Virus record (IMG/VR): IMGVR_UViG_2619619126_000011
DNA: 16,729 nt
Reading direction: 5' to 3' (one strand)
Source: a virus
Lineage: Duplodnaviria; Heunggongvirae; Uroviricota; Caudoviricetes
Shown here: positions 1,277 through 16,729 of the stretch, in pieces
Position numbering within the stretch: position 1 is the stretch's first letter
Layout: each line of letters starts with the position of its first letter
Made by a program: the position numbers and the translations under genes
The notes under the pieces: generated by a model
Databases searched by the model: none
The model's input: only the letters and a program-made list of their open reading frames with translations
What the model was told of the DNA's origin: nothing

Positions 1277-1308
1277 CGGCACGTTAAATCATATCAGGCG
1301 TAATACCA

Positions 1309-1331
1309 CAACCCTTAAGTTAGCGCTTATG
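1309..1331. repeat. IS186 right terminal inverted repeat
   Basis: 1309-1323 is a perfect reverse complement of window positions 1-15; extension to 1331 is inferred because the partner bases lie outside the window. Confidence 0.65.
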
Positions 1332-1353
1332 GGATTTCTCCCCGCCGGTCCTC

Positions 1354-1509
1354 TTACTCCCCAAGTTCGTAAGCTGTGAAGACAGCGACCTCCGTCTGGT
1401 CGGTTCGGATTCGTACCTCGCAGAGGTCTTTCCTCGTTACCAGTACCGTCACTATAACGGTTAAACAGATGACGATCAGGGCGACTAACATCGCCTTTTG
1501 CTGCTTCAT
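1354..1509 (-). CDS. Hok/Gef-family type I toxin (small membrane-depolarising peptide), 51 aa
   Basis: MKQQKAMLVALIVICLTVIVTVLVTRKDLCEVRIRTDQTEVAVFTAYELGE: one TM helix followed by the conserved RKDLCEV and TEVAVFTAYE motifs of HokC/HokD (RelF) as I recall them. ATG at 1509 is preceded by an AGGAGAAG RBS. Confidence 0.85.
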   Translation of the reverse strand: MKQQKAMLVALIVICLTVIVTVLVTRKDLCEVRIRTDQTEVAVFTAYELGE

Positions 1510-1566
1510 AGCCTGCTTCTCCTTGCCTTTCGGCACGTAAGAGGCTAACCTACATGTGCAAAGCAT
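1354..1566 (-). CDS. mok-like reading frame (in-frame upstream extension of hok, needed for hok translation in hok/sok systems)
   Basis: 70-codon frame MLCTCRLASYVPKGKEKQAMKQQ... with the same layout I recall for K-12 MokC, where Hok is the C-terminal 50 residues. The frame begins with a non-ATG start at 1566. Confidence 0.45.
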   Translation of the reverse strand: MLCTCRLASYVPKGKEKQAMKQQKAMLVALIVICLTVIVTVLVTRKDLCEVRIRTDQTEVAVFTAYELGE

Positions 1567-1768
1567 GAAATTGGCCTCAGATTAATGTTAAGCGTCTTGC
1601 CGGATGCGTAATGTTAACTGGGGCTTTTCTCTATCTGCCTTTGATGTTCATGCCCGAGGCAGATAGCCTCAAGTATCCGCAGCTATTTGTCTGCTGTTAC
1701 CACCTACCTGCGCCAATCACTGACTCTACAAAGATCTATCCGCGATAACATTTTGAGTTTAAGAACTT

Positions 1769-1797
1769 TTGCGTACGCACCAAAAGATGCATATACT
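1769..1797 (+). promoter_or_regulatory. Putative sigma70 promoter for the two-gene operon (TTGCGT -35, 17-bp spacer, TATACT -10)
   Basis: TTGCGT at 1769-1774 and TATACT at 1792-1797, about 40 bp upstream of the GGAG RBS and ATG at 1839. Sequence pattern only. Confidence 0.3.
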
Positions 1798-1838
1798 AGA
1801 CTAGTCATAGTTCTAATCTGCTTGATTATGGAGTCAGG

Positions 1839-2897
1839 ATGAGTTTCCTTTCTGAACAAGACGTACAAAATTTAGTCATTAATAAAATGATCTTTCACGT
1901 TGTAGGTAAGAATCTTGAAGCACCGACACTTCTCAAAGAAATAAAACCAGTTCAGCATGTGGATTTTTTTCTTGAACGTATCAAATCTTCACTGAAAGGA
2001 AATCTTTTCACTTTTCTGGAGAATTCAAATACCGAAAGAATCCTGCGTATCATTAGAGATAAAGCAGATGCTGAAGCTAATTGTTTTACAGAACAATCGA
2101 AGCTACTGGCCAGTGATTTTCAGTCACACCATTCTAGCGGTAACACGAGTATGGGATGCTTTTTCTTATTTGAATTGGTTTCAGATAAGGAAAAATTCTA
2201 TGCAATTATAAAATACGATAATGAAGATGTGGTTCGTTATGTTCTTGACGAAAAGTTATCTGAAGAACAAATGCCTACTTTAGAAAGATTTCATGAAACT
2301 TTCGTAAAAAAAGCTGAGGCAATGCAAAAAATAGCGTTAATTCAACTTGATCCAAGTGGGAAAGGCGGGAAAGTTATTGTAAAAGACAGGAGTAAAAGAA
2401 CCAATATTTCAGGATATTTTAAAGGCTTCTTAAATGTTAAAAGAGTCAACTCTGAAATTGAACTTTGCAATAAGCTTATTGATGCGCTGAAAATAACCTT
2501 CAAAAGGCATAAAGAATTATTGCCAGAGTCAATTCAAAAAAGCGGCGTAAATAAAATATATGAAGTTTTAAGCAGAGCTGATTTCGAATATAATCCTGAA
2601 GATGCTTCTCCGTTATTGACCAGCATTTTTGGGCCGTTAGATGAAAAATCACCAATTCTCAACACATTCAAAACTCAAACAAAAAATGCTGGTATTGAAG
2701 GCGAATCCTTTACTATAAAAGCAGATGGCATTCATAAACCACCAAGACGAAAAATTGAAACTGCAGAAAGTGTAGTAATTAGTTATAATGAAGATGACCG
2801 TCCAGAAATAAGAAACTTAGATGATGGGCGAAAACAAATTATTGTTACTACTGCGAGGATTATTACTGATGACATCGATACTTCAAAAAATCGATGA
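1839..2897 (+). CDS. Hypothetical protein, 352 aa, soluble; gene A of the low-GC two-gene operon, with a tentative by-eye resemblance to the NdpA/YejK (NA37) nucleoid-associated protein family
   Basis: ATG at 1839 preceded by GGAG (1830-1833). The long ORF is about 30% G+C, sampled by hand on 60-nt lines. No catalytic motif recognised. The NdpA resemblance rests on short patterns such as G-F-LF and Y-FKG and is not a search result. Confidence 0.8.
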   Translation: MSFLSEQDVQNLVINKMIFHVVGKNLEAPTLLKEIKPVQHVDFFLERIKSSLKGNLFTFLENSNTERILRIIRDKADAEANCFTEQSKLLASDFQSHHSSGNTSMGCFFLFELVSDKEKFYAIIKYDNEDVVRYVLDEKLSEEQMPTLERFHETFVKKAEAMQKIALIQLDPSGKGGKVIVKDRSKRTNISGYFKGFLNVKRVNSEIELCNKLIDALKITFKRHKELLPESIQKSGVNKIYEVLSRADFEYNPEDASPLLTSIFGPLDEKSPILNTFKTQTKNAGIEGESFTIKADGIHKPPRRKIETAESVVISYNEDDRPEIRNLDDGRKQIIVTTARIITDDIDTSKNR

Positions 2898-4302
2898 GTC
2901 TATACAGGCGTCAAGGAAAGACCCTGAATTTTTGGCATCAGAATCAATAAAAAATGATTCTGCGCGCGTTCTAATTTCTGCCAAAATGGACAAAGATGCA
3001 CTCATTCTTTGGCAGTACGTTTACGAAAACGTACCAAATTGGATTGAAATTACTGTTAAAGATGACTGTAATGATGAAGTAAAACCATCGTCATGCAGTG
3101 AAGGTGATAAACTTAACATTACGCTAAAATGCATTGCATTCGAAAATAACAGGTATATTTTTACGCTCGAAGGGTGGAATGTTTTTCTACACAATGATGA
3201 TTTAGTATCAATAACCAATAAAGTGAATATTCTCGGTTTGAAACATGGATTTGAAACTTTAGGATATTCTGTTGAGCCATGGAACCATGCTCCAGAAAAA
3301 ATTGAATCTAATGAAACCGTACGAACTTCAATCAATTTACAGAGCTACGTTAAATTCTATTCTAGTGAGTTCATGCCTGCATCTGATATAGCTCCTTGGG
3401 TACTTTATAAAATGCCTGAGGCAGAGGACAACTTTTTCAAAAAATGGTTACAAGTTTCCTGCAATATGCTTTGTCGCACTCTCGTTAATGAATTATTAGC
3501 AGATGAAAAGAAATCAATTTGTTTAACTGGAAAGCCACCAAAAAAATTAATTTATGGAGATCCAGACATTCTGCTTTCCGACTATTCAGTTTTACAAACT
3601 GTAATAAACTGGATCTTTATTGAGGGCAATGAGATTGAACTCAAACATACTTTCTTCACAAGTGAGTTAGCACGAGAATGGCCAGAGTATGTATCCTTCT
3701 GTGAGGGTTTACCAAAAAAACTCCCTATGGCCTTTGAGTCAGCAAAATTACTATATAAGGCCCACATTCGCGCTAGCAGCAGAGAGACTATTAAATCTCT
3801 GTCCGATCTAAGGAAAACCTTAGCTGAAGACACGCAAAAAATAATAAGTCAGTCTAAAGACATCACATCCGCTCTTTGGAAAGATCTGGCTCTGGTTATA
3901 AGTCTATTTGCAATAAAATATGCGCTAGACGCATCAAAGATTAATATAACCAATAACATATTCCCATATATGTTCTTCGCGTTATCTATATATATTTTTA
4001 TATCTCAGGTTACAACTCTCTTCATAAATAAAAATTACTTTAAGATACTTGATAATACTAGGCTAGTCTGGAGAGATAAACTATATGGTTTTCTTGATGA
4101 TACTGACTATGAGAATCTTGCAGTCACACCATTAAGAGAAGCATACAAAGCTTATCAGATTATAGCCACATTCGTTGTGATTCTGACTTTGCTGATTTCA
4201 TTTATAATGATCATATTAGGATTCTCAATGCTTGATGAACATGCTACGAATGCAATTACCTCTTGGCTCAGTTCTCACTTAATCAATAGTTACTGTAGTT
4301 AA
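2869..4302 (+). CDS. Hypothetical protein, ~477 aa, with a soluble N-terminal region and 2-3 C-terminal transmembrane helices; gene B of the operon
   Basis: Start ATG 2869 is chosen for the GAGGA 9 nt upstream; it overlaps the gene A stop by 29 nt. The alternative start is ATGATG at 2821. Hydrophobic stretches LALVISLFAIKYAL, IFPYMFFALSIYIFISQVTTLFI and YQIIATFVVILTLLISFIMIILGFSML lie near the C-terminus. AT-rich like gene A. Confidence 0.8.
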   Translation: MTSILQKIDESIQASRKDPEFLASESIKNDSARVLISAKMDKDALILWQYVYENVPNWIEITVKDDCNDEVKPSSCSEGDKLNITLKCIAFENNRYIFTLEGWNVFLHNDDLVSITNKVNILGLKHGFETLGYSVEPWNHAPEKIESNETVRTSINLQSYVKFYSSEFMPASDIAPWVLYKMPEAEDNFFKKWLQVSCNMLCRTLVNELLADEKKSICLTGKPPKKLIYGDPDILLSDYSVLQTVINWIFIEGNEIELKHTFFTSELAREWPEYVSFCEGLPKKLPMAFESAKLLYKAHIRASSRETIKSLSDLRKTLAEDTQKIISQSKDITSALWKDLALVISLFAIKYALDASKINITNNIFPYMFFALSIYIFISQVTTLFINKNYFKILDNTRLVWRDKLYGFLDDTDYENLAVTPLREAYKAYQIIATFVVILTLLISFIMIILGFSMLDEHATNAITSWLSSHLINSYCS

Positions 4303-4329
4303 TTTAAGGCGAGAGAAACTCGCCTTAAA
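4303..4329. terminator. Hairpin between the convergent gene B and Q-like gene (11-bp stem TTTAAGGCGAG / CTCGCCTTAAA, 5-nt loop)
   Basis: Perfect inverted repeat seen directly, lying between the gene B stop (4300-4302) and the Q-like stop (4333-4335). No clean U-tract follows the GC core on either strand, so intrinsic terminator function is uncertain. Confidence 0.4.
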
Positions 4330-4332
4330 AAA

Positions 4333-4851
4333 TCAACGGTAATAGATACAACCTGCAATAAATCCCATTGCCATTTGCATTTTTTTCCTTATTTTACCAT
4401 CTGAACATTCGTTTATCTTAGCTAAACAACGCAATGAAACTCCCATAACAAAATGAGCGATAATTAACTCATAGTCATCTATCCTATATTGTTTAAGCCT
4501 CAACATGCAGGTATCAATTATACCCCCTTCATCATTGCTGCACTGACGACGTGATTTTTTACCATGAGGAACAACATTTTTATATTTATCAGCTATTTCC
4601 TGCCAATCAATAGAACTATTTTCAGCTACAGCCCAGGCTCCCCAACCGTCCAAAATATCATATATATTAGCATTGCTATCTACCTGTTTTTTATATTCTT
4701 TTTTGAATCGCGCAAGAAGCATCCTAGCCATCGTTATTATTTCTATACTTGTAACTGATTCATAAGCATCAGGAGAAATAATTCTCCCATCACTTAATGC
4801 CCCATCACTAAGATTTGCTATTTCCAATAATCGTTCTTTAGTTATTTCCAT
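4333..4851 (-). CDS. Phage late antitermination protein Q family (QuuD-like), 172 aa, with an N-terminal extension
   Basis: WGAWA...RRQCSNDEGGIID...YELIIAHFVMGVSLRCLAK..CSDGKIRKKMQMAMGFI aligns by eye to E. coli QuuD as I recall it (WGAWA, RPQC and CSDG.IGKRLQ motifs). ATG 4851 has a GGAG RBS. Unlike the flanking prophage genes it is about 33% G+C. Confidence 0.65.
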   Translation of the reverse strand: MEITKERLLEIANLSDGALSDGRIISPDAYESVTSIEIITMARMLLARFKKEYKKQVDSNANIYDILDGWGAWAVAENSSIDWQEIADKYKNVVPHGKKSRRQCSNDEGGIIDTCMLRLKQYRIDDYELIIAHFVMGVSLRCLAKINECSDGKIRKKMQMAMGFIAGCIYYR

Positions 4852-5011
4852 TATTATCTCCACCGCCTTTTCGGGCGGCCTCCTGATGATTTGAGAGTGC
4901 AGGAATTCCTCCGGTTAAGGACTCTATTTTATTCACAGTGCTGAATTTAATTATTCAGATTTGGGTTATGCTTTCTCTTTCACTTCACCAAGTTCCGATT
5001 ATTAATTTGGC

Positions 5012-5434
5012 TCACAACAGCACCTCTTGAAAGTTTCCCCGATAAAACGCCAGTACACGCTGCATAACTTCTCTTTTACGGCACTCACTACAAATTATAT
5101 TATGACGCCTGTCGTAACGACGTATTTCTCCGTCAGATAACGAGCAGATAAGGTCAGGATCAACCATAACCGGTTCCTTCGACTTTGCACTCGAGAGTTT
5201 TTTGCTGGCGTTTTGCCAGTCTTTACGTGCCTGCTCAGACGGGAATAACCCGTAGCCAGAGTTGTATACGTAACCACTCGAAACCAGCTCTTTGGCGAGA
5301 ATACTTATCAGATATCTGGTTGCCCCTGTTTTAGCTTCCAGTTGTCGTAACGTCTCTCGCTCACTCTGGCGTACGAGATCAACAATCTGCCCTTTAATTT
5401 TTTCTCGCTCTTCCTGTGTTAATACTTTTGCCAT
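5012..5434 (-). CDS. Hypothetical prophage protein, 140 aa, with possible HTH and a C-terminal CxxC
   Basis: ATG at 5434 preceded by a strong GGGGAGGG RBS and tightly packed behind the upstream gene. The ORF-track start at 5500 would overlap that gene, so the internal Met is preferred. Confidence 0.7.
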   Translation of the reverse strand: MAKVLTQEEREKIKGQIVDLVRQSERETLRQLEAKTGATRYLISILAKELVSSGYVYNSGYGLFPSEQARKDWQNASKKLSSAKSKEPVMVDPDLICSLSDGEIRRYDRRHNIICSECRKREVMQRVLAFYRGNFQEVLL

Positions 5435-5450
5435 AAGCCCTCCCCTAGAA

Positions 5451-6176
5451 TCACTTTTCCGACACAATACGACTGGAGGAATCGACAATCTGACGGACAA
5501 TATCCTGGTGCTTGTTCAGCTCACGCAGCGCGGCGCAGACTCGCTCCCACTTCTGGACATAACTTTTCGCCCGGCGCAGTTCGCGGTTTGCCATTTGCAG
5601 CGATGGTATAATCAGGTCATTGGCTCGCGTTTCAGTGAACGATGGTAGTGACTGCACAATGTCCCCCACAGTATCTGTTTTAATTTCTTCCTGTGTTGCC
5701 GCTTCCTGTACTGGTAACGCAACACCGGCTGGCTGAGGAAAGCCTTTACCAGGTGTTTTCACTACCGATACAACTTTCGGCTCTGCTGGTAAATTACCGT
5801 CCGGCAGGCAGTAACGAAATTTACCGTTCTGATTTACGCGAATCAGACGACCTTTGCTGATGGCCATAGCCAGCGATGAGTTCACCCTGCGGGAAGTAAT
5901 TCTGAATATCAGTGCAAGTTCATCAGCCGCTTTAGGGCCATGCTGTTCAATCGCCTCGATCAGCATTTGCGCTGTCACTTTAGAAGCCTGTGCTACAGAT
6001 GCGTTTTCGTCGGTTTGAGTCAACCACCACATCGGGCCCTTGTTATCAGCTTCCCCACGACGCTTCAGTTTCCACAGCTCGTTAATCGCCTCATCCCGGG
6101 TCATTCCCAGACGTGCTGCCACTTCCTGGGAAGAGGCTTTTCCCATTGCTTTCAGTGCGTCAAAAACGGTCTCCAT
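5451..6176 (-). CDS. Hypothetical prophage protein, 241 aa, with an N-terminal winged-helix-like segment; sits in the ydaW/nin-equivalent position
   Basis: ATG at 6176 preceded by a GGGAGG RBS, 22 bp after the ydaV stop. SSQEVAARLGMTRDEAINELWKLKRRG looks HTH-like. Confidence 0.75.
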   Translation of the reverse strand: METVFDALKAMGKASSQEVAARLGMTRDEAINELWKLKRRGEADNKGPMWWLTQTDENASVAQASKVTAQMLIEAIEQHGPKAADELALIFRITSRRVNSSLAMAISKGRLIRVNQNGKFRYCLPDGNLPAEPKVVSVVKTPGKGFPQPAGVALPVQEAATQEEIKTDTVGDIVQSLPSFTETRANDLIIPSLQMANRELRRAKSYVQKWERVCAALRELNKHQDIVRQIVDSSSRIVSEK

Positions 6177-6198
6177 TAAAATTTCCTCCCGGTAAAAA

Positions 6199-6945
6199 TT
6201 ACTTCTCAATTCCTGGCTGACCAACATTCGGGCGCCAGCTCTCCCAGTTAAAATTCACCCATCGCCCGCCGTTCATGGTCATCCGATCCATAATCCTCTC
6301 GCCGAGCAATGTTTTCATGGCCTCATAGTTCAGGTTTGTCAGCATCCCCACGCTGCGGATCGACGCTGTCCGGCGATCAACAATCTGGTGCAGTACCACC
6401 TGCTCGTTTTTTGTCTCGCGCTGAATGCCAATTTCATCAAGAACCAGCAGATCCACTTCGCACAGTTCCCGCAAAAATTTTTCGCCTGATTGCCCGTCGT
6501 CATAGCTGGCGTGTAGAGCACTCATAACATCAGCCACGGTAACCACAATCACTGTCTGACCGTTTTTCAGCAGGCGATTCCCGATAGCCGCCGCCAGATG
6601 GTTTTTTCCGGTACCAGGTTTTCCGCTAAACGCAAAATTTGTACACCCGACCATCAGTTCATCGGCGATGGATTTCGCCTGGCTCAACGCGTATCGCTGG
6701 CCGTCGTTCTGCACCTGGTAATTCGAAAACGAGCATTTGCGGTGCAACGGCTGGATGCCGGAGCGATTCAGAATTTTTTCCACCCGCAACTGACGATTCT
6801 GGCGATTGATCTCCTCGCAACGTTTCTGGCCTTCTGCAAGTTGCCACTCGCGCCACTCCGCCACCGTCCTGAATGGCGCGGTTACATGTGGCGGGGCCAG
6901 TCTGCGGATACGTTCCAGAACGCCGCCTGTCGCAATATTTTTCAT
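6199..6945 (-). CDS. ydaV: DnaC/IstB-like AAA+ helicase loader (Rac YdaV), 248 aa
   Basis: Walker A GKPGTGKNHLAAAIG and Walker B-like DLLVLDEIG. Length and position match K-12 Rac ydaV. GGGGG RBS upstream of ATG 6945. Confidence 0.9.
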   Translation of the reverse strand: MKNIATGGVLERIRRLAPPHVTAPFRTVAEWREWQLAEGQKRCEEINRQNRQLRVEKILNRSGIQPLHRKCSFSNYQVQNDGQRYALSQAKSIADELMVGCTNFAFSGKPGTGKNHLAAAIGNRLLKNGQTVIVVTVADVMSALHASYDDGQSGEKFLRELCEVDLLVLDEIGIQRETKNEQVVLHQIVDRRTASIRSVGMLTNLNYEAMKTLLGERIMDRMTMNGGRWVNFNWESWRPNVGQPGIEK

Positions 6946-7348
6946 GGTCAGTTACCCCCTGAAGCCTGGCGGGATCGCACTGTCCGGAAACGAGACAGTG
7001 TTAACCTGTCGGAGCAACGTCTCAGGCCGAACACTTTTCGGCGCGAACAAGCCCTGGTATTCATTGGCGATGCTGTGTCGAATCACCTGCTCAGGGGTAA
7101 AACCCTGCTGGCGGAATTTTTCCAGTTCCCGTATCGCCCCGTTAGCGCCCTGCTCCGTTCGAATCGGTTTTCGCAATGCCTGCCTGAACTGGACCCACTC
7201 ATTCCAGAGTGTTTCTGGCAACCAGTCGGGCAGAGCAATGGCCTCCGGCTCGAATTGTTTAGACGCTCGTTTTTGCCGAGGGGGATTTAGGGGGAGATCA
7301 GTATTTATATCTTCCTCTTCCTCTGGTAACGCTTTTTGATCCGTTTGT

Positions 7349-7367
7349 GTAACGCTGGCAGCGTTAC
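7349..7367. repeat. 19-bp palindrome GTAACGCTGGCAGCGTTAC (copy 1 of 3)
   Basis: Seen directly; lies inside the ydaU coding region. Confidence 0.8.
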
Positions 7368-7556
7368 CTTTTCGCTTCAGTTCGCGTATTTTTGTAACTC
7401 TCTCGTTTGTAACCGCCCGTTTTTTTCGAGCTTTTTCCGTTATGACGCTCAAAGTTTGGTAGTGAAAGCACTCCATCACTTTCGACCAGCCATCCAACCT
7501 GAATTAACGCATCAGCAAAACCAGCCATAAAAGTGATACGGTCTATTGCACTTTTT

Positions 7557-7575
7557 GTAACGCCTCGAGCGTTAC
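7557..7575. repeat. 19-bp palindrome GTAACGCCTCGAGCGTTAC (copy 2 of 3)
   Basis: Seen directly; lies inside the ydaU coding region. A half-site GCGTTACC follows at 7580-7587. Confidence 0.8.
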
Positions 7576-7748
7576 ACTCTGCGTTACCGTCTATCATTTG
7601 TTGATCCGCCCATGCCCAGAAGCGAATGACTTTCCCTAATGCGGCATCTGGATCAATATTCAGAATCTCAGCAAGCCTGAATATTTCCGGCTTATCCGGC
7701 GTAATAACTTCGAGCTTTATCCAGTTTGAAGCCATTTGTTTTCACCTT

Positions 7749-7767
7749 GTAACGCTCGCAGCGTTAC
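7749..7767. repeat. 19-bp palindrome GTAACGCTCGCAGCGTTAC (copy 3 of 3), immediately upstream of the ydaU RBS
   Basis: Seen directly; lies between the ydaT stop (7813) and the ydaU start (7735). Confidence 0.8.
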
Positions 7768-7812
7768 ATTTAACTGATACCGAACAAAACAGTTCGGTAC
7801 GATTAATTTCAA

Positions 7813-8235
7813 TCAATGCACTACGACAGAATCGCTAGGAGAACCGCCGCCGCTGAAATGTGCTTTACGGTAAACGGCCTGGACTGCATCATCATGCGCA
7901 TCAATTGCCGTACTCAGTGCATCCTGTGCCGCCAGTAATGCACGGCGTTCCAGGGTATCGAAGATGCAGAGTCGGTGACGCAGCTCGCGAGGAAGAATTG
8001 CCAGAACCGCAGGGATCAGTTTCTGAATTTTTTCCCTTTGCGCATTCGTTTCACCTTTCAACCAACGATGATAGATATTCTGCTGATTGTTCCAGTCCTT
8101 GCCTGGTACCAGGGGCAATTCGCCGCCCCCCTGGTGCAGATATTCTTCAGTAATTGCGTTAGCGACCCACGCCTGCCCTTTTTCGGCTGCCAGGGCTAAC
8201 AACACTGATTCGATGTGCTCATGCTTGATTTTCAT
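7813..8235 (-). CDS. ydaT: YdaT (cII-like prophage regulator/toxin), 140 aa
   Basis: MKIKHEHIESVLLALAAEKGQAWVANAITEEY..., with length and position as in K-12 Rac. Its start overlaps the upstream gene stop as ATGA. Confidence 0.85.
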   Translation of the reverse strand: MKIKHEHIESVLLALAAEKGQAWVANAITEEYLHQGGGELPLVPGKDWNNQQNIYHRWLKGETNAQREKIQKLIPAVLAILPRELRHRLCIFDTLERRALLAAQDALSTAIDAHDDAVQAVYRKAHFSGGGSPSDSVVVH

Positions 8236-8565: not shown

Positions 8566-8985
8566 ATGGTTCATGAAGATAAAGCGCGTAAAGAGTTCGC
8601 CAGTAGGCTTGCGCTAGCCTGTGAAAACGCTGGTTATGAACAACATGGAAGGCAGGCAGAAATTGCCCGTCGAATGAAATTAACACCAAAAGCGGTTAGC
8701 AAATGGTTTAATGGTGAAACAATTCCTCGCCGAGAGAAATTAAGGGAATTAGCAACACTCATTGGAACAACACCAACCTATCTTTTGGGAGAGGATACAG
8801 AAGAAAGTGGACAGATACGTTTCTATCAGGAGTTAAATCCAAGACAAAAAATCATCATTGACCTTCTGGACGAGCTCCCTGACAGTGAGACAGATGAACT
8901 TTTAAAAACTCTTGAGGAGAAAAAACAGAAGTACAATGCAATTTACGAAGAGTTAGCACGAAAGAAAAAACAAAAAGCCTCTTAA
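8566..8985 (+). CDS. racR: RacR prophage repressor (HTH, no recognisable S24 peptidase domain), 139 aa
   Basis: MVHEDKARKEFASRLALACENAGYEQHGRQAEIARRMKLTPKAVSKWFNGETIP has an HTH. It sits divergent from the cro/ydaT operon as in K-12 Rac. An in-frame stop at 8509-8511 forbids a longer N-terminus. Confidence 0.8.
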   Translation: MVHEDKARKEFASRLALACENAGYEQHGRQAEIARRMKLTPKAVSKWFNGETIPRREKLRELATLIGTTPTYLLGEDTEESGQIRFYQELNPRQKIIIDLLDELPDSETDELLKTLEEKKQKYNAIYEELARKKKQKAS

Positions 8986-9417: not shown

Positions 9418-9573
9418 ATGCAAAAAATCGACCTCGGCAACAACGAATCCCTGGTGTGCGGCGTGTTCCCCAACCAGGATGGAACGTTCACTGCCATGAC
9501 GTATACCAAAAGCAAAACATTTAAAACCGAAACTGGTGCGCGCCGATGGTTGGAGAAGCACACAGTAAGCTAA
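9418..9573 (+). CDS. ydaF: Small Rac prophage protein YdaF, 51 aa
   Basis: Translating to MQKIDLGNNESLVCGVFPNQDGTFTAMTYTKSKTFKTETGARRWLEKHTVS. Its 3' end overlaps the sieB 3' end by 4 bp, convergently. The RBS is weak. Confidence 0.65.
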   Translation: MQKIDLGNNESLVCGVFPNQDGTFTAMTYTKSKTFKTETGARRWLEKHTVS

Positions 9574-10058
9574 CGATTAAAACGTCTACTCCTGCTGTTC
9601 CAGAATAACTTCATAAAATGGGAGTATTTTTCGGTGACGAGATAATAAGAACAGTTTGCGCTATCACTCTGATGTTGAATGATGCCCTTCCGTTCTAATT
9701 TTTTCATAACCGGGTTACGGCAAGGAGAAGTGATAATAAGATTTCCTGTTTTAAGGAAATCTTTAAATACAGCGATTTCTTTCTCAGATAAACGAAGCAA
9801 TACTCGTTGCTCTGGTAGTAATGAATAATGCTTTTGAATATGTGCTCGCAATCTTGTGAAGGAAATGGCGACCACGAAAGAAAAGGCAAAAACGATAATC
9901 TGAAAGAGCCAAGGTATTTCAGTATAAGCATTGAATGCGACAGTAAACTCTTTCGGTATCAGCCAGAGAGTGAGACCAAAAATGATAATCGTATACATAA
10001 GTCTTTCGAGTGGCTCGTTAGCAAAAAGTTTCAACAATGGAGTAAATACATCCAACAT
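9570..10058 (-). CDS. sieB: Superinfection exclusion protein SieB, 162 aa
   Basis: ATG at 10058 (MLDVFTPLLKLF...) followed by hydrophobic helices. Length matches K-12 SieB. The ORF-track N-terminal extension to 10181 is not supported. Confidence 0.85.
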   Translation of the reverse strand: MLDVFTPLLKLFANEPLERLMYTIIIFGLTLWLIPKEFTVAFNAYTEIPWLFQIIVFAFSFVVAISFTRLRAHIQKHYSLLPEQRVLLRLSEKEIAVFKDFLKTGNLIITSPCRNPVMKKLERKGIIQHQSDSANCSYYLVTEKYSHFMKLFWNSRSRRFNR

Positions 10059-11342: not shown

Positions 11343-13943
11343 ATGAGCACAAAACCACTCTTCCTGTTACGGAAAGCGAAAAAATCATCCGGTGAACCTG
11401 ACGTCGTCCTGTGGGCAAGCAACGATTTTGAATCGACCTGTGCCACTCTGGACTACCTGATCGTTAAGTCAGGTAAAAAACTGAGCAGCTATTTTAAAGC
11501 TGTTGCCACGAATTTTCCTGTCGTTAATGACCTGCCCGCTGAAGGTGAGATCGATTTTACCTGGAGTGAACGCTATCAACTCAGCAAAGACTCCATGACA
11601 TGGGAACTAAAACCGGGAGCAGCACCAGACAACGCTCACTATCAAGGCAATACCAACGTCAACGGCGAAGACATGACTGAGATTGAGGAGAATATGCTAC
11701 TCCCAATTTCTGGCCAGGAACTGCCCATTCGTTGGCTTGCTCAACACGGCAGCGAAAAACCGGTAACGCACGTTTCACGCGACGGACTCCAGGCATTACA
11801 CATTGCTCGGGCTGAAGAACTACCGGCTGTTACTGCCCTGGCTGTTTCCCACAAAACCAGCCTGCTCGACCCGCTGGAAATTCGCGAACTCCACAAACTG
11901 GTTCGTGACACTGACAAAGTTTTCCCTAATCCTGGTAATTCAAACCTGGGACTGATAACTGCTTTTTTCGAAGCATACCTGAACGCTGACTACACCGATC
12001 GAGGACTGCTGACAAAAGAGTGGATGAAGGGTAATCGTGTTTCACACATCACTCGCACGGCTTCCGGTGCTAATGCTGGCGGCGGAAACCTCACCGATCG
12101 CGGCGAAGGTTTCGTACACGATCTGACGTCACTGGCGCGCGACGTAGCCACTGGCGTACTGGCCCGTTCAATGGATCTGGACATCTATAACCTTCATCCG
12201 GCACACGCTAAACGCATTGAGGAAATTATCGCTGAAAATAAACCGCCCTTTTCTGTTTTCCGCGACAAATTCATCACCATGCCTGGCGGGCTGGATTATT
12301 CCCGCGCCATCGTGGTTGCGTCCGTAAAAGAAGCACCAATTGGGATCGAGGTCATCCCCGCGCACGTCACTGAATATCTGAACAAAGCACTGACTGAAAC
12401 CGATCATGCCAACCCTGATCCGGAAATCGTGGATATTGCCTGCGGTCGCTCCTCTGCCCCGATGCCGCAGCGAGTAACAGAAGAAGGAAAACAGGATGAT
12501 GAAGAAAAACCGCAACCATCTGGAACAACGGCAGTTGAACAGGGAGAGGCTGAAACAATGGAACCGGACGCAACTGAACATCATCAGGACACGCAGCCGC
12601 TGGATGCTCAGTCACAGGTAAATTCTGTTGATGCGAAATATCAGGAACTGCGGGCAGAACTCCATGAAGCCCGGAAAAACATTCCATCAAAAAATCCTGT
12701 CGATGCCGATAAATTGCTTGCTGCATCACGTGGTGAATTTGTTGACGGAATTAGCGACCCGAACGATCCGAAATGGGTAAAGGGGATCCAGACTCGCGAT
12801 TGTGTGTACCAGAACCAGCCAGAAACGGAAAAAACCAGCCCAGATATGAATCAACCTGAGCCAGTAGTGCAACAGGAACCGGAAATAGCCTGCAATGCCT
12901 GCGGCCAGACTGGCGGGGGTAACTGCCCTGACTGTGGGGCGGTGATGGGCGACGCAACATACCAGGAAACATTCGATGAAGAGAGTCAGGTTGAAGCTAA
13001 GGAAAATGATCCGGAGGAAATGGAAGGCGCTGAACATCCGCACAATGAGAATGCTGGCAGCGATCCGCATCGCGATTGCAGTGATGAAACTGGCGAAGTC
13101 GCAGATCCCGTAATCGTAGAAGACATAGAGCCAGGTATTTATTACGGAATTTCGAATGAGAATTACCACGCGGGTCCCGGTATCAGTAAGTCTCAGCTCG
13201 ATGACATTGCTGATACTCCGGCACTATATTTGTGGCGTAAAAATGCCCCCGTGGACACCACAAAGACAAAAACGCTCGATTTAGGAACTGCTTTCCACTG
13301 CCGGGTACTTGAACCGGAAGAATTCAGTAACCGCTTTATCGTAGCACCTGAATTTAACCGCCGTACAAACGCCGGAAAAGAAGAAGAGAAAGCGTTTCTG
13401 ATGGAATGCGCAAGCACAGGAAAAACGGTTATCACTGCGGAAGAAGGCCGGAAAATTGAACTCATGTATCAAAGCGTTATGGCTTTGCCGCTGGGGCAAT
13501 GGCTTGTTGAAAGCGCCGGACACGCTGAATCATCAATTTACTGGAAAGATCCTGAAACAGGAATTTTGTGTCGGTGCCGTCCGGACAAAATTATCCCTGA
13601 ATTTCACTGGATCATGGACGTGAAAACTACGGCGGATATTCAACGATTCAAAACCGCTTATTACGACTACCGCTATCACGTTCAGGATGCATTCTACAGT
13701 GACGGTTATGAAGCACAGTTTGGAGTGCAGCCAACTTTCGTTTTTCTGGTTGCCAGCACAACTATTGAATGCGGACGTTATCCGGTTGAAATTTTCATGA
13801 TGGGCGAAGAAGCAAAACTGGCAGGTCAACAGGAATATCACCGCAATCTGCGAACCCTGTCTGACTGCCTGAATACCGATGAATGGCCAGCTATTAAGAC
13901 ATTATCACTGCCCCGCTGGGCTAAGGAATATGCAAATGACTAA
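11343..13943 (+). CDS. recE: RecE (exonuclease VIII), full length, 866 aa
   Basis: [30 protein letters not shown]... Length matches K-12 RecE. It sits directly upstream of recT with the stop overlapping the recT start. Confidence 0.95.
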
Positions 13944-14745
13944 GCAACCACCAATCGCAAAAGCCGATCTGCAAAAAACTCAGGGAAACCGTGCACCAGC
14001 AGCAGTTAAAAATAGCGACGTGATTAGTTTTATTAACCAGCCATCAATGAAAGAGCAACTGGCAGCAGCTCTTCCACGCCATATGACGGCTGAACGTATG
14101 ATCCGTATCGCCACCACAGAAATTCGTAAAGTTCCGGCGTTAGGAAACTGTGACACTATGAGTTTTGTCAGTGCGATCGTACAGTGTTCACAGCTCGGAC
14201 TTGAGCCAGGTAGCGCCCTCGGTCATGCATATTTACTGCCTTTTGGTAATAAAAACGAAAAGAGCGGTAAAAAGAACGTTCAGCTAATCATTGGCTATCG
14301 CGGCATGATTGATCTGGCTCGCCGTTCTGGTCAAATCGCCAGCCTGTCAGCCCGTGTTGTCCGTGAAGGTGACGAGTTTAGCTTCGAATTTGGCCTTGAT
14401 GAAAAGTTAATACACCGCCCGGGAGAAAACGAAGATGCCCCGGTTACCCACGTCTATGCTGTCGCAAGACTGAAAGACGGAGGTACTCAGTTTGAAGTTA
14501 TGACGCGCAAACAGATTGAGCTGGTGCGCAGCCTGAGTAAAGCTGGTAATAACGGGCCGTGGGTAACTCACTGGGAAGAAATGGCAAAGAAAACGGCTAT
14601 TCGTCGCCTGTTCAAATATCTGCCCGTATCAATTGAGATCCAGCGTGCAGTATCAATGGATGAAAAGGAACCACTGACAATCGATCCTGCAGATTCCTCT
14701 GTATTAACCGGGGAATACAGTGTAATTGATAATTCAGAGGAATAA
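13936..14745 (+). CDS. recT: RecT single-strand annealing recombinase, 269 aa
   Basis: [59 protein letters not shown]... The ATG lies within AATGACTAA, overlapping the recE stop. Confidence 0.95.
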
Positions 14746-14801
14746 TTCAGCCTGGCGGGGTAATGCACCGCCAACTTGAAATATTTTTTATGAGAAAAAT
14801 T

Positions 14802-14996
14802 ATGAGATATGACAATGTTAAACCATGTCCATTTTGTGGTTGTCCATCAGTAACGGTGAAAGCCATTTCAGGATATTACCGAGCGAAGTGTAACGGATGC
14901 GAATCCCGAACCGGTTATGGTGGAAGTGAAAAAGAAGCACTCGAAAGATGGAATAAACGAACCACTGGAAATAATAATGGAGGTGTTCATGTATAA
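14802..14996 (+). CDS. ralR: Restriction alleviation protein Lar/RalR, 64 aa
   Basis: MRYDNVKPCPFCGCPSVTVKAISGYYRAKCNGCESRTGYGGSEKEALERWNKR, with CxxC...CxxC. Position is downstream of recT as in Rac. Confidence 0.85.
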   Translation: MRYDNVKPCPFCGCPSVTVKAISGYYRAKCNGCESRTGYGGSEKEALERWNKRTTGNNNGGVHV

Positions 14997-15198
14997 AATT
15001 ACCGCCACTATTGAAAAGGAAGGTGGCACTCCTACTAACTGGACAAGATATTCAAAATCTAAACTAACGAAATCAGAATGCGAAAAAATGCTCTCAGGTA
15101 AAAAAGAAGCAGGCGTTTCCAGAGAGCAGAAAGTAAAACTGATAAATTTTAATTGCGAGAAACTTCAGTCCTCGAGAATTGCATTGTATTCAAATTAA
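14989..15198 (+). CDS. ydaC: YdaC (RcbA), 69 aa
   Basis: ATG 14989 with a GGAGGT RBS (MYKITATIEKEGGTPTNWTRYSKSKLTKSECEKMLSGKKEAG...). It overlaps the ralR 3' end. Confidence 0.8.
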   Translation: MYKITATIEKEGGTPTNWTRYSKSKLTKSECEKMLSGKKEAGVSREQKVKLINFNCEKLQSSRIALYSN

Positions 15199-15210
15199 AA
15201 CTTCATAGCT

Positions 15211-15224
15211 GATTATTAATAATC
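15211..15224. repeat. 14-bp perfect palindrome GATTATTAATAATC upstream of xis
   Basis: Seen directly between ydaC and xisR. Confidence 0.8.
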
Positions 15225-15276
15225 AACATCGGGCGTCAATTTCAGTCTAACATTGGCGCCTGCCAGAGGTGATGCG

Positions 15277-15492
15277 ATGGCACAAGTAATCTTTAATGAA
15301 GAGTGGATGGTTGAATACGGCCTGATGCTTCGCACTGGTCTGGGGGCCAGACAAATTGAAGCATACCGCCAGAACTGTTGGGTGGAGGGCTTCCACTTCA
15401 AACGAGTATCTCCTTTAGGTAAGCCAGACAGCAAACGAGGGATTATCTGGTACAACTATCCAAAGATAAATCAGTTTATCAAAGACTCATGA
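15277..15492 (+). CDS. xisR: Excisionase XisR (YdaQ), 71 aa
   Basis: ATG 15277 ([46 protein letters not shown]...). Its stop is 1 bp from the int start. The ORF-track TTG start at 15253 is less likely. Confidence 0.8.
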
Positions 15493-15493
15493 T

Positions 15494-16729
15494 ATGTCTA
15501 AATTACCAACAGGTGTCGAGATTAGAGGTAGATACATTCGCATCTGGTTCATGTTTCGAGGAAAACGATGTCGGGAAACATTAAAAGGCTGGGAGATTAC
15601 AAACAGTAATATTAAAAAGGCCGGAAATTTAAGATCGCTGATAGTTCATGAAATAAACTCCGGTGAATTTGAGTATTTAAGACGTTTTCCCCAGTCCAGC
15701 ACTGGGGCAAAAATGGTGACAACGAGAGTCATAAAAACGTTCGGAGAGCTTTGTGATATCTGGACAAAAATTAAAGAGACAGAGTTAACAACAAACACAA
15801 TGAAGAAAACGAAATCACAATTAAAAACACTCAGAATAATAATTTGTGAAAGTACCCCGATATCACATATTCGTTATAGCGATATCTTAAACTACCGGAA
15901 TGAACTGCTGCATGGAGAAACGCTTTACCTGGATAATCCAAGATCCAACAAAAAAGGAAGAACCGTGCGCACAGTTGATAACTATATCGCCCTGCTCTGT
16001 TCGCTGTTGCGTTTTGCGTATCAGTCGGGATTTATATCAACTAAACCATTTGAAGGAGTAAAAAAATTACAGCGAAACAGAATAAAGCCTGATCCGTTAT
16101 CTAAAACAGAATTCAATGCATTAATGGAAAGTGAAAAAGGACAGAGCCAGAACTTGTGGAAATTTGCCGTTTACTCAGGACTTCGTCACGGGGAACTGGC
16201 AGCTCTGGCGTGGGAGGATGTGGATCTCGAAAAGGGAATAGTGAATGTCAGAAGAAACCTGACGATACTTGATATGTTCGGTCCCCCAAAAACAAATGCC
16301 GGGATCCGAACAGTAACACTACTGCAGCCTGCTCTTGAAGCACTGAAGGAGCAATACAAACTGACCGGGCATCATCGCAAAAGCGAAATCACCTTTTATC
16401 ATCGGGAGTACGGCAGAACCGAAAAGCAAAAACTGCATTTTGTTTTCATGCCCAGGGTGTGTAACGGAAAACAAAAACCTTATTACTCGGTAAGCAGTTT
16501 GGGGGCAAGGTGGAATGCAGCAGTAAAACGTGCTGGTATTCGCCGCCGTAATCCGTACCATACGCGGCATACTTTTGCCTGCTGGCTGTTGACGGCAGGA
16601 GCGAACCCGGCATTTATAGCCAGCCAAATGGGGCATGAAACTGCGCAGATGGTGTATGAAATTTACGGTATGTGGATTGATGACATGAACGACGAACAGA
16701 TAGCCATGTTGAATGCGCGGTTATCGTAG
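15494..16729 (+). CDS. intR: Rac prophage tyrosine integrase IntR, 411 aa
   Basis: MSKLPTGVEIRGRYIRIWFMFRGKRCRETLKGW... with the C-terminal catalytic region (R...HTRHTFACWLLTAG...Y). The stop is the last codon of the window, so attR lies beyond it. Confidence 0.95.
   Translation: MSKLPTGVEIRGRYIRIWFMFRGKRCRETLKGWEITNSNIKKAGNLRSLIVHEINSGEFEYLRRFPQSSTGAKMVTTRVIKTFGELCDIWTKIKETELTTNTMKKTKSQLKTLRIIICESTPISHIRYSDILNYRNELLHGETLYLDNPRSNKKGRTVRTVDNYIALLCSLLRFAYQSGFISTKPFEGVKKLQRNRIKPDPLSKTEFNALMESEKGQSQNLWKFAVYSGLRHGELAALAWEDVDLEKGIVNVRRNLTILDMFGPPKTNAGIRTVTLLQPALEALKEQYKLTGHHRKSEITFYHREYGRTEKQKLHFVFMPRVCNGKQKPYYSVSSLGARWNAAVKRAGIRRRNPYHTRHTFACWLLTAGANPAFIASQMGHETAQMVYEIYGMWIDDMNDEQIAMLNARLS

Follow-up and report, generated by a model that had tools for sequence, protein, structure and literature searches.

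The question raised by this locus is why a stretch of approximately 3 kb within a phage genome is much poorer in G+C than the genes around it, how it came to be there, and what its genes do. The window, by which we mean the whole stretch of DNA analysed, is the 16,729-nt IMG/VR record IMGVR_UViG_2619619126_000011. It is a Rac-like lambdoid prophage of Escherichia coli, and the low-G+C stretch is an accessory slot of this prophage, holding two genes, here called A and B, and a gene of the phage Q family (the Q-like gene) that is convergent with them. To judge by its architecture, the A–B pair is a probable defence operon built on a nucleoid-associated protein (NAP) and carried in a prophage hotspot, both the operon and the hotspot being of kinds already known.

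The low-G+C block and its junctions

The interval marked in the initial annotation, nt 1839–4863, has 34.5% G+C, compared with 50.2% in the left flank (nt 1–1838) and 49.9% in nt 4864–8000, and in a 300-nt profile the G+C content drops from 45–59% to 31–40% between approximately 1.75 and 5.0 kb. A two-changepoint maximum-likelihood fit to the whole window places the block at 1725–4850, with 34.6% G+C inside and 46.8% outside, so that the step changes expected near 1.8 and 4.9 kb are indeed present; the same fit limited to the first 9 kb returns a block at 1744–5103. Introducing the block increases the log-likelihood by 84.4 nats. The corresponding gain in 100 shuffles of 100-nt blocks, which served as the null, was 13.6 ± 3.7 with a maximum of 27.0, which rules out chance or artefact as the source of the step. 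The size of the contrast had been overstated, even though the step and its position were correct: values of 28–33% had been set against about 57% in the replication genes, whereas we measure about 35% against 49–53%, and 57% is reached only in isolated 300-nt windows.

Third codon positions show the bias most strongly: the G+C content at these positions (GC3) is 0.25 in gene A, 0.31 in gene B and 0.24 in the Q-like gene (33.7%, 34.9% and 34.7% G+C overall), compared with 0.44–0.62 in the backbone genes DUF977, DUF1627, ydaV, ydaU, ydaT and recE. The Q-like gene therefore has the same foreign composition as the cargo, as had been proposed. Smaller AT-rich patches are found in the prophage at 8566–8985, 9570–10058, 14700–15300 and 15600–16050 (the repressor-like gene has 40.5% G+C, sieB 37%, and the sequence from downstream of recT into int 35–39%), and the 3-kb island is the biggest of these several patches and the lowest in G+C.

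The features of the slot and its immediate flanks are:

1331–1687, minus strand: hok/mok/sok type I toxin–antitoxin locus, with the mok open reading frame at 1354–1566; Hok/Gef is annotated in the RefSeq record of locus L001
1688–1757, no strand: junction linking the hok/sok anchor to the A–B cassette, present neither in the comparators with other cargo nor in the closest A–B cassettes
1758–1838, plus strand: 5′ region of the cassette, with a candidate promoter and a GGAG ribosome-binding site ahead of the ATG at 1839, as read from the sequence
1839–2897, plus strand: gene A, a 352-amino-acid (aa) NAP of the YejK/NdpA family (Pfam NA37, PF04245)
2869–4302, plus strand: gene B, a 477-aa acidic protein with predicted C-terminal transmembrane helices; the RefSeq start maps to 2869
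4303–4332, no strand: hairpin with an 11-bp stem, TTTAAGGCGAG-agaaa-CTCGCCTTAAA, as read from the sequence
4333–4500, minus strand: 3′ part of the Q-like gene (the last ~45–55 codons), predicted to encode the recognition helix of a helix-turn-helix (HTH) and the C-terminal tail; co-segregates with the A–B cassette
4501–4851, minus strand: 5′ part of the Q-like gene, encoding a 62-aa N-terminal extension followed by the first half of the Q core; also present in loci with different cargo
4852–5011, minus strand: intergenic region upstream of the Q-like gene, 40.6% G+C; homology to the phage Rac genome, which has no Q-like gene, restarts at 4852

Around the slot the gene content is that of a Rac-like prophage, with recE (866 aa), recT, xis and int on the plus strand at 11.3–16.7 kb and ydaS/T/U/V, DUF1627 and DUF977/lygF on the minus strand. 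From position 1331 onward the window is 99.9% identical to a prophage of E. coli 201609 (NZ_CP048107.1; L001) that adjoins ttcA. The order on the minus strand of L001 is ydaV, DUF1627, DUF977, the Q-family gene, then A and B on the opposite strand, followed by hok, DUF1367, DUF1364, DUF1133, two tRNAs and the lysis genes. The island thus lies between the replication-side gene DUF977/lygF and hok/sok.

Comparison with Rac-like prophages, which the initial annotation had named as the way to find the recombination junctions, places them at 1682–1688 on the left and inside the Q-like gene on the right. Against phage Rac (MN652886, locus L003) the homology breaks at 1687 and restarts at 4852. Phage Rac has neither the Q-like gene nor A–B but five small open reading frames in their place, and the gap at 1688–4851 means that the Q-like gene and the cargo are one replaced segment in that comparison. 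Across six loci (L003–L006, L020 and L021) common flanks enclose five different contents. Next to the long form of Q these are a DUF6731 protein with a 159-aa membrane protein (L004, L020), a different NAP with a 406-aa transmembrane protein (L005), or three hypothetical proteins (L006, and L021 from E2348/69). The hok/sok locus is 84–92% identical in L003–L006 and L012, and the homology of every comparator stops at 1682–1688, which identifies hok/sok as the evident conserved left anchor of a variable slot. In the closest A–B cassettes homology begins at 1758/1761. The 5′ part of the Q-like gene is, on the same alignments, the conserved right anchor, and nt 4852–5011 are backbone, outside the exchanged block.

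Identity profiles along the alignments place the right junction inside Q. The 5′ part of the Q-like gene is 95–100% identical to that in L006 and 88–98% identical to those in L005 and L004, all of which carry unrelated cargo. Sliding identity to L006 is 95–100% at approximately 4530–4860 and 62–72% below about 4500, and it is random past the stop codon; the same 62–72% holds for the 3′ part of the gene against long-Q alleles with other cargo. The opposite pattern is found against L014, in which A–B lies beside a short Q: identity is 80–85% from the cargo through the hairpin and into Q up to about 4470, and then 53–65%. The breakpoint can therefore be placed, approximately, at 4470–4530. With or without the last ~130–230 nt of Q, the A–B cassette is 80–88% identical beside a short Q (L014) or no Q (L015). 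In protein alignment the C-terminal Q peptide SLRCLAKIN.CSDGKIR...GFIAGCIY is common to the window and L014, and in other loci too the C-terminal segment of Q tracks the type of cargo (L004 matches L020, and L006 matches L021). These alignments indicate a chimeric Q-like gene, with a 5′ part from the long-Q anchor and a 3′ end that travels with A–B. Because the identity junction lies inside Q, the island is composite and consists of at least two separately exchanged pieces. The breakpoints directly support an exchange by homologous recombination between the conserved Q core and hok/sok. The crossover falls within the conserved middle of Q, and the C-terminus of Q is therefore supplied by each cassette.

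These junctions bear on the proposal that a single foreign block of Q plus cargo arrived in one recent lambdoid exchange from a lower-G+C donor. Lambdoid mosaic exchange was the right kind of process, as the two breaks against phage Rac show, and in that comparison the entire segment 1688–4851 was replaced at once. The uniform G+C and GC3 over A, B and the Q-like gene also fit a single block, as does the presence of A–B beside a PF06530 Q in the otherwise different contexts of L008, L012, L014 and L016, where Q, A and B have diverged roughly in parallel. However, a single block does not account for a breakpoint inside Q, with one part nearly identical to alleles next to unrelated cargo and the other following A–B, nor for the A–B pairs without Q in L015, L007, L010 and L017–L019. 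Full-length long Q is found in 68 E. coli genomes and is intact in all of them, and 38 of these pair it with other convergent cargo (484 genomes have any match, and the full island is found in 29 of 5,426 complete E. coli genomes). The single-block history is thus highly doubtful, and the view of Q plus cargo as one unit holds for the comparison with phage Rac but not for the inside of Q or for the loci where A–B occurs alone.

We identified no lower-G+C donor lineage matching the island: the sequences nearest to it all lie in prophage slots of enterobacteria and have 33–36% G+C. The phage-slot copies of A–B in enteric bacteria all have this composition, including those of Serratia and Pantoea, where the surrounding locus has 54% and 41% G+C respectively (the latter AT-rich and plasmid-like). 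Distant A–B homologues are host-like in G+C, with 48% in an integrase island and 66% against a background of 67% in Methylobacterium. The AT-richness is a property of the phage-borne cargo pool and not of a traceable recent import. Low G+C is general to the cargo of Q-anchored slots across Enterobacterales and is no sign of a single recent arrival from a named donor.

Genes A and B and their likeness to PANGU

Gene A matches PF04245 with E = 1.2e-12 and 48.3 bits (cut-off 24.6) over profile positions 1–316 of 325. It is named 'nucleoid-associated protein' in RefSeq, and most of its 79 homologues have the same domain. Gene B begins on the same strand 29 nt before gene A ends. Although an open reading frame of 493 aa, the longest for gene B, opens at 2821, the ATG at 2869 is favoured by RefSeq and by every homologue, and the 16 codons upstream of it (2821–2868) are probably untranslated. 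The B protein has an isoelectric point of 5.3 and hydrophobic segments at approximately 364–387 and 425–459. Its AlphaFold model (predicted local distance difference test, pLDDT, 87) has an alpha/beta domain at residues 1–230 and long helical hairpins at 364–474. Sequence searches of the PDB with A and B gave nothing meaningful.

A and B behave as a unit. In each of the 16 loci examined (L007–L019) their homologues lie side by side in an unchanged order; some of these loci are prophage-like and come from enteric assemblies and metagenomes, others are from Serratia, Pantoea, Citrobacter and Methylobacterium, and the wider lists of A and B homologues add Yersinia, Ewingella, Sodalis and Methylomonas. 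From L014 and L015 the minimal cassette is self-contained and runs from 1758/1761 to 4331, i.e., 2.57 kb. The region at 1758–1838 is co-inherited with A–B in both of these loci, and its candidate promoter consists of TTGCGT and TATACT, 17 nt apart, at approximately 1770–1798. At the other end, the stop codons of B and the Q-like gene face each other across 30 nt, all of which the hairpin takes up. The hairpin is the 3′ boundary of the minimal cassette, with homology to L015 stopping at 4331. No U-tract follows the stem on either strand, and the hairpin is therefore not a canonical intrinsic terminator.

The pair is also found in other states. In one NCBI enterobacterial assembly (L017–L019, 5968–8485; protein P0029 is named from Citrobacter braakii) an A–B homologue, with B approximately 41% identical, adjoins a tyrosine integrase in a non-phage island of 48% G+C. 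In E. coli E01 (L002, 7252–8500) an IS1A insertion or deletion has cost the locus gene A and, from its 5′ end, two-thirds of B, leaving the Q-like gene intact; homology to the window begins there at 3831, and tail-fibre genes are now joined to the remnant of B.

The closest known system in architecture is PANGU, whose sensor is a YejK-like NAP and whose partner protein is the effector (Li et al., bioRxiv 10.64898/2026.04.06.716658, 2026 preprint). The effector of type II PANGU combines an acidic N-terminal domain with a transmembrane domain at its C-terminus. For an E. coli example both genes are reported to be needed against T4, phage escape mutants map to EndoII, and the NAP leaves the nucleoid on infection; PANGU systems were active as two genes on plasmids (Li et al.). 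The limits used there were E < 1e-10 for the IPR007358/NA37 profile, a length of at least 300 aa, and genes less than 40 bp apart. The profile score and length of gene A, its overlap with B on the same strand, and the C-terminal hydrophobic segments and modelled hairpins of B all fall within this description. A–B is thus like type II PANGU in being a two-gene operon with a NAP of ~350 aa first and an overlapping acidic partner that is transmembrane at its C-terminus, and type II PANGU likewise occurs in E. coli and widely in Proteobacteria. It differs in that the N-terminal domain of B is mildly acidic, whereas the type II effector is described as binding the NAP through a highly acidic N-terminal domain that mimics DNA. 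The main text of the preprint makes no mention of prophages, whereas the A–B copy studied here is cargo of a lambdoid prophage slot.

From this likeness, A–B is likely to be an abortive-infection (Abi) cassette like those of type II PANGU, which the lysogen would express by way of the cassette's own upstream sequence. The steps, which we infer from the preprint, would be as follows. In the lysogen A would reside on the chromosome while B would be inactive in the inner membrane. A lytic phage that degrades the host chromosome would set A free, the freed A would bind the N-terminal domain of B, and B would then damage the membrane, so that the infected cell would die before phage release.

The Q-like gene, Q-anchored slots and their surroundings

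The Q-like gene (4333–4851, minus strand) encodes 172 aa from its ATG. By sequence it is a member of the Q21/Q933W antiterminator family: it matches Pfam PF06530 with E = 1.3e-33 and 115.8 bits (cut-off 26) and phrog_79, 'Q-like', with E = 5e-33, and its best match in the PDB, though weak (E = 0.25), is Q21. The protein consists of a short-Q core, alignable at 51–65% identity with the short Q of Shiga toxin (Stx)-converting and other lambdoid phages, preceded by the 62-aa N-terminal extension. Unlike Q21 and Q933W it has this extension, which is absent from deposited phages, and it does not lie before the late and lysis genes. Among database clusters the long form is confined to E. coli and Salmonella, and neither long Q nor a close homologue of gene A was found in 50,697 phage records. 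The ratio of nonsynonymous to synonymous substitution rates (dN/dS) between long-Q alleles is 0.30–0.37, corresponding to purifying selection. In L001 the gene is not at the late-gene position, since the convergent A–B, hok, DUF1367, DUF1364, DUF1133 and the tRNAs precede the lysis genes, and because DUF1133, another Q-position gene, follows approximately 4 kb downstream, the Q-like copy is accessory. The AlphaFold model from database homologues is poor (pLDDT 53); predicted C-terminal helices at 124–146 and 151–171, together with a PF08281 match in some homologues, are compatible with a sigma-R4-like fold at that model quality. No Q-binding element (QBE), pause element or promoter was identified, where the target motif of the subfamily is not known and the consensus promoter scan was at chance level.

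Slots of this kind recur beyond E. coli. A single long-Q protein used as survey query found no relatives; a Q alignment as query, with one genome per species across Enterobacterales, returned 80 loci, 64 of them with enough flank. The first open reading frame after Q, of at least 100 aa, is convergent and starts within 400 nt of the PF06530 Q stop codon in 48 of these 64 loci, and 51 slots yielded 56 protein clusters. The cargo has on average 36.4% G+C compared with 51.9% upstream; it is lower in 50 of the 51 slots, and by at least 10 points in 44. A NAP is present in at least 12 of the 51. Other cargo includes a KAP NTPase, AAA_15/AAA_21 proteins, a D12 methylase with a partner, and the PADLOC candidates PDC-M53A and PDC-S33, and a prophage slot in ST131 holds DUF262 with HEPN. 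When 20 representative cargo proteins were scanned, most had no Pfam match, and PADLOC matched 2 of the 10 scanned. With its diverse, AT-rich cargo and several defence-type families, the slot anchored by PF06530 Q looks like a defence hotspot; many of the representatives belong to no family. The literature we searched contained no description of a Q-anchored or hok-adjacent lambdoid defence hotspot, and we consider the generality of the slot and the breakpoint inside Q to be moderately novel.

Two NAP pairs other than A–B occur in these slots. An NA37 protein with a RelA_SpoT protein, the type I PANGU architecture of NAP plus toxSAS, is found in the slots of five species (L035, L045, L066, L074 and L084; Kosakonia, Enterobacter, Serratia and Erwinia), approximately 0–2.2 kb downstream of Q. 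The commonest slot cargo is a second, unrelated NAP (~380 aa, NA37 E = 4e-46) with a 406-aa acidic protein that has C-terminal transmembrane segments. This pair is found in approximately 8–9 species, for example in L005, L043 (Shigella flexneri), L055 and L059 (Xenorhabdus), L058 (Ewingella) and L061 (Proteus).

In organisation the slot resembles the hotspots of P2 and P4 (Rousset et al. 2022, PMC9122126; Vassallo et al. 2022, PMC9519451), where conserved phage genes also bracket short, hypervariable, AT-rich cargo that includes defence-type genes and is swapped between otherwise similar prophages. Unlike in those hotspots, the anchor here is the PF06530 Q gene of lambdoid prophages, the cargo is convergent with it, and the crossover lies inside the anchor gene. 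In Stx-converting phages stx, tRNA and methylase genes lie downstream of Q, and stx is co-oriented with late transcription and Q-dependent. The slot is like this Q-proximal moron position in that cargo directly follows the Q of lambdoid phages; in the short-Q loci L012, L022 and L023 the order is Q, cargo, a small open reading frame with a methylase, and late genes. It is unlike it in that the cargo is convergent with Q and the copy described here lies in the early region beside hok.

Several observations concern the surroundings of the slot. Upstream of the Q-like start, in the backbone, are a perfect 18-nt palindrome, CTGAATAATTAAATTCAG, at 4941–4958 and a GC-rich hairpin, GGCCGCC-cgaaaa-GGCGG, at 4862–4880. 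The region containing them is common to Rac-like phages without the Q-like gene, and either could be an operator or a terminator. On the other side, a copy of IS421 (IS4 family) at nt 1–1334 abuts the hok locus. E. coli STEC367 (L006, 1947–3280) has a 99.9% identical copy at the equivalent hok-proximal site in reverse orientation, an arrangement suggestive of separate insertion events at a single favoured GC-rich target. Upstream of hok, at 11968–13434 of L012, a metagenomic prophage like those of E. coli encodes a reverse transcriptase (RVT_1) together with a member of the 8xMP family, which suggests a second cargo slot in this phage type, with content like that of a retron or a defence-associated reverse transcriptase (DRT).

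Alternatives and wider meaning

How firmly can A–B be read as a defence operon? Several points weigh against doing so. Gene B matched no Pfam, PADLOC or PHROG family, and gene A and the Q-like gene likewise had no match in PADLOC. A consensus scan of 1300–5500 for promoters and terminators gave counts at the level of shuffled sequence, so that the promoter of A and the role of the hairpin, like the defence function and any role of the Q-like gene, are matters we infer. A–B is likened to the tested pair Pag2A/Pag2B (PANGU-Ecu) by architecture and not by sequence, the evidence for PANGU itself comes from a preprint, and the pair of the L005/L043 type, not A–B, could be the experimentally tested type II PANGU. 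In addition, the slot statistics come from our own open reading frame calls in one genome per species. The lack of matches to defence-system models would suit a non-immune prophage moron, for example one in which a NAP that silences or organizes prophage or host DNA is combined with a membrane protein for superinfection exclusion or host physiology. The canonical role of NA37/YejK proteins is nucleoid association, according to the Pfam description, and with sieB and kilR in Rac, non-Abi accessory functions are common in this type of prophage. This alternative nevertheless appears improbable: the operon architecture fits a system reported to defend E. coli, and the same slot elsewhere holds NA37 with toxSAS, a KAP NTPase, AAA_15/21 proteins, DUF262 with HEPN, and PDC-M53A. 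The homologue in Methylobacterium, moreover, adjoins a giant NERD-helicase protein.

A separate issue is whether the Q-like gene is a working part of the cassette, i.e., an accessory antiterminator whose target is set by the cassette-linked C-terminus. It might allow early read-through across the convergent cassette to downstream genes, or antisense shut-off of the cassette during the lytic cycle of the prophage itself. Purifying selection and the intact gene in 68 of 68 carriers would fit such a role, as would the convergent geometry kept in 48 of 64 loci. The cassette-linked segment is also predicted to encode the HTH recognition helix and the C-tail, and in Q21 the HTH module binds the QBE and C-terminal residues contact RNA polymerase (Yin et al., bioRxiv 10.1101/651190). 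However, A–B is found elsewhere as a two-gene unit without Q, just as PANGU is active as two genes, and linkage to a crossover hotspot explains the covariation of the C-terminus equally well; no Q target site was found in the promoter scan, and the structural model of the protein is poor. We regard a functional Q of this kind as possible but doubtful. The fullest version, in which PF06530 Q is an undescribed anchor of a defence hotspot with PANGU-type NAPs as its commonest cargo and cassette-borne Q C-termini, and in which the long Q-like protein is an antiterminator coupled to the cassette that controls read-through or antisense silencing of A–B in its own lytic cycle, is unlikely. If true, the cassette-coupled Q-like gene would be a built-in self-immunity switch.

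With A–B read as a probable PANGU-type cassette, what began as a compositional anomaly becomes a concrete object, a probable nucleoid-sensing abortive-infection operon in a common type of E. coli prophage, and PANGU-type systems would thereby be placed in a specific phage niche. The breakpoint in Q is a clear case of cassette exchange with a regulatory gene as the crossover site, and it leads one to ask whether an exchange of cargo also reshuffles the specificity of the antiterminator. More generally, the survey points to the position just after PF06530 Q genes as a promising one in which to search for new defence systems throughout Enterobacterales.

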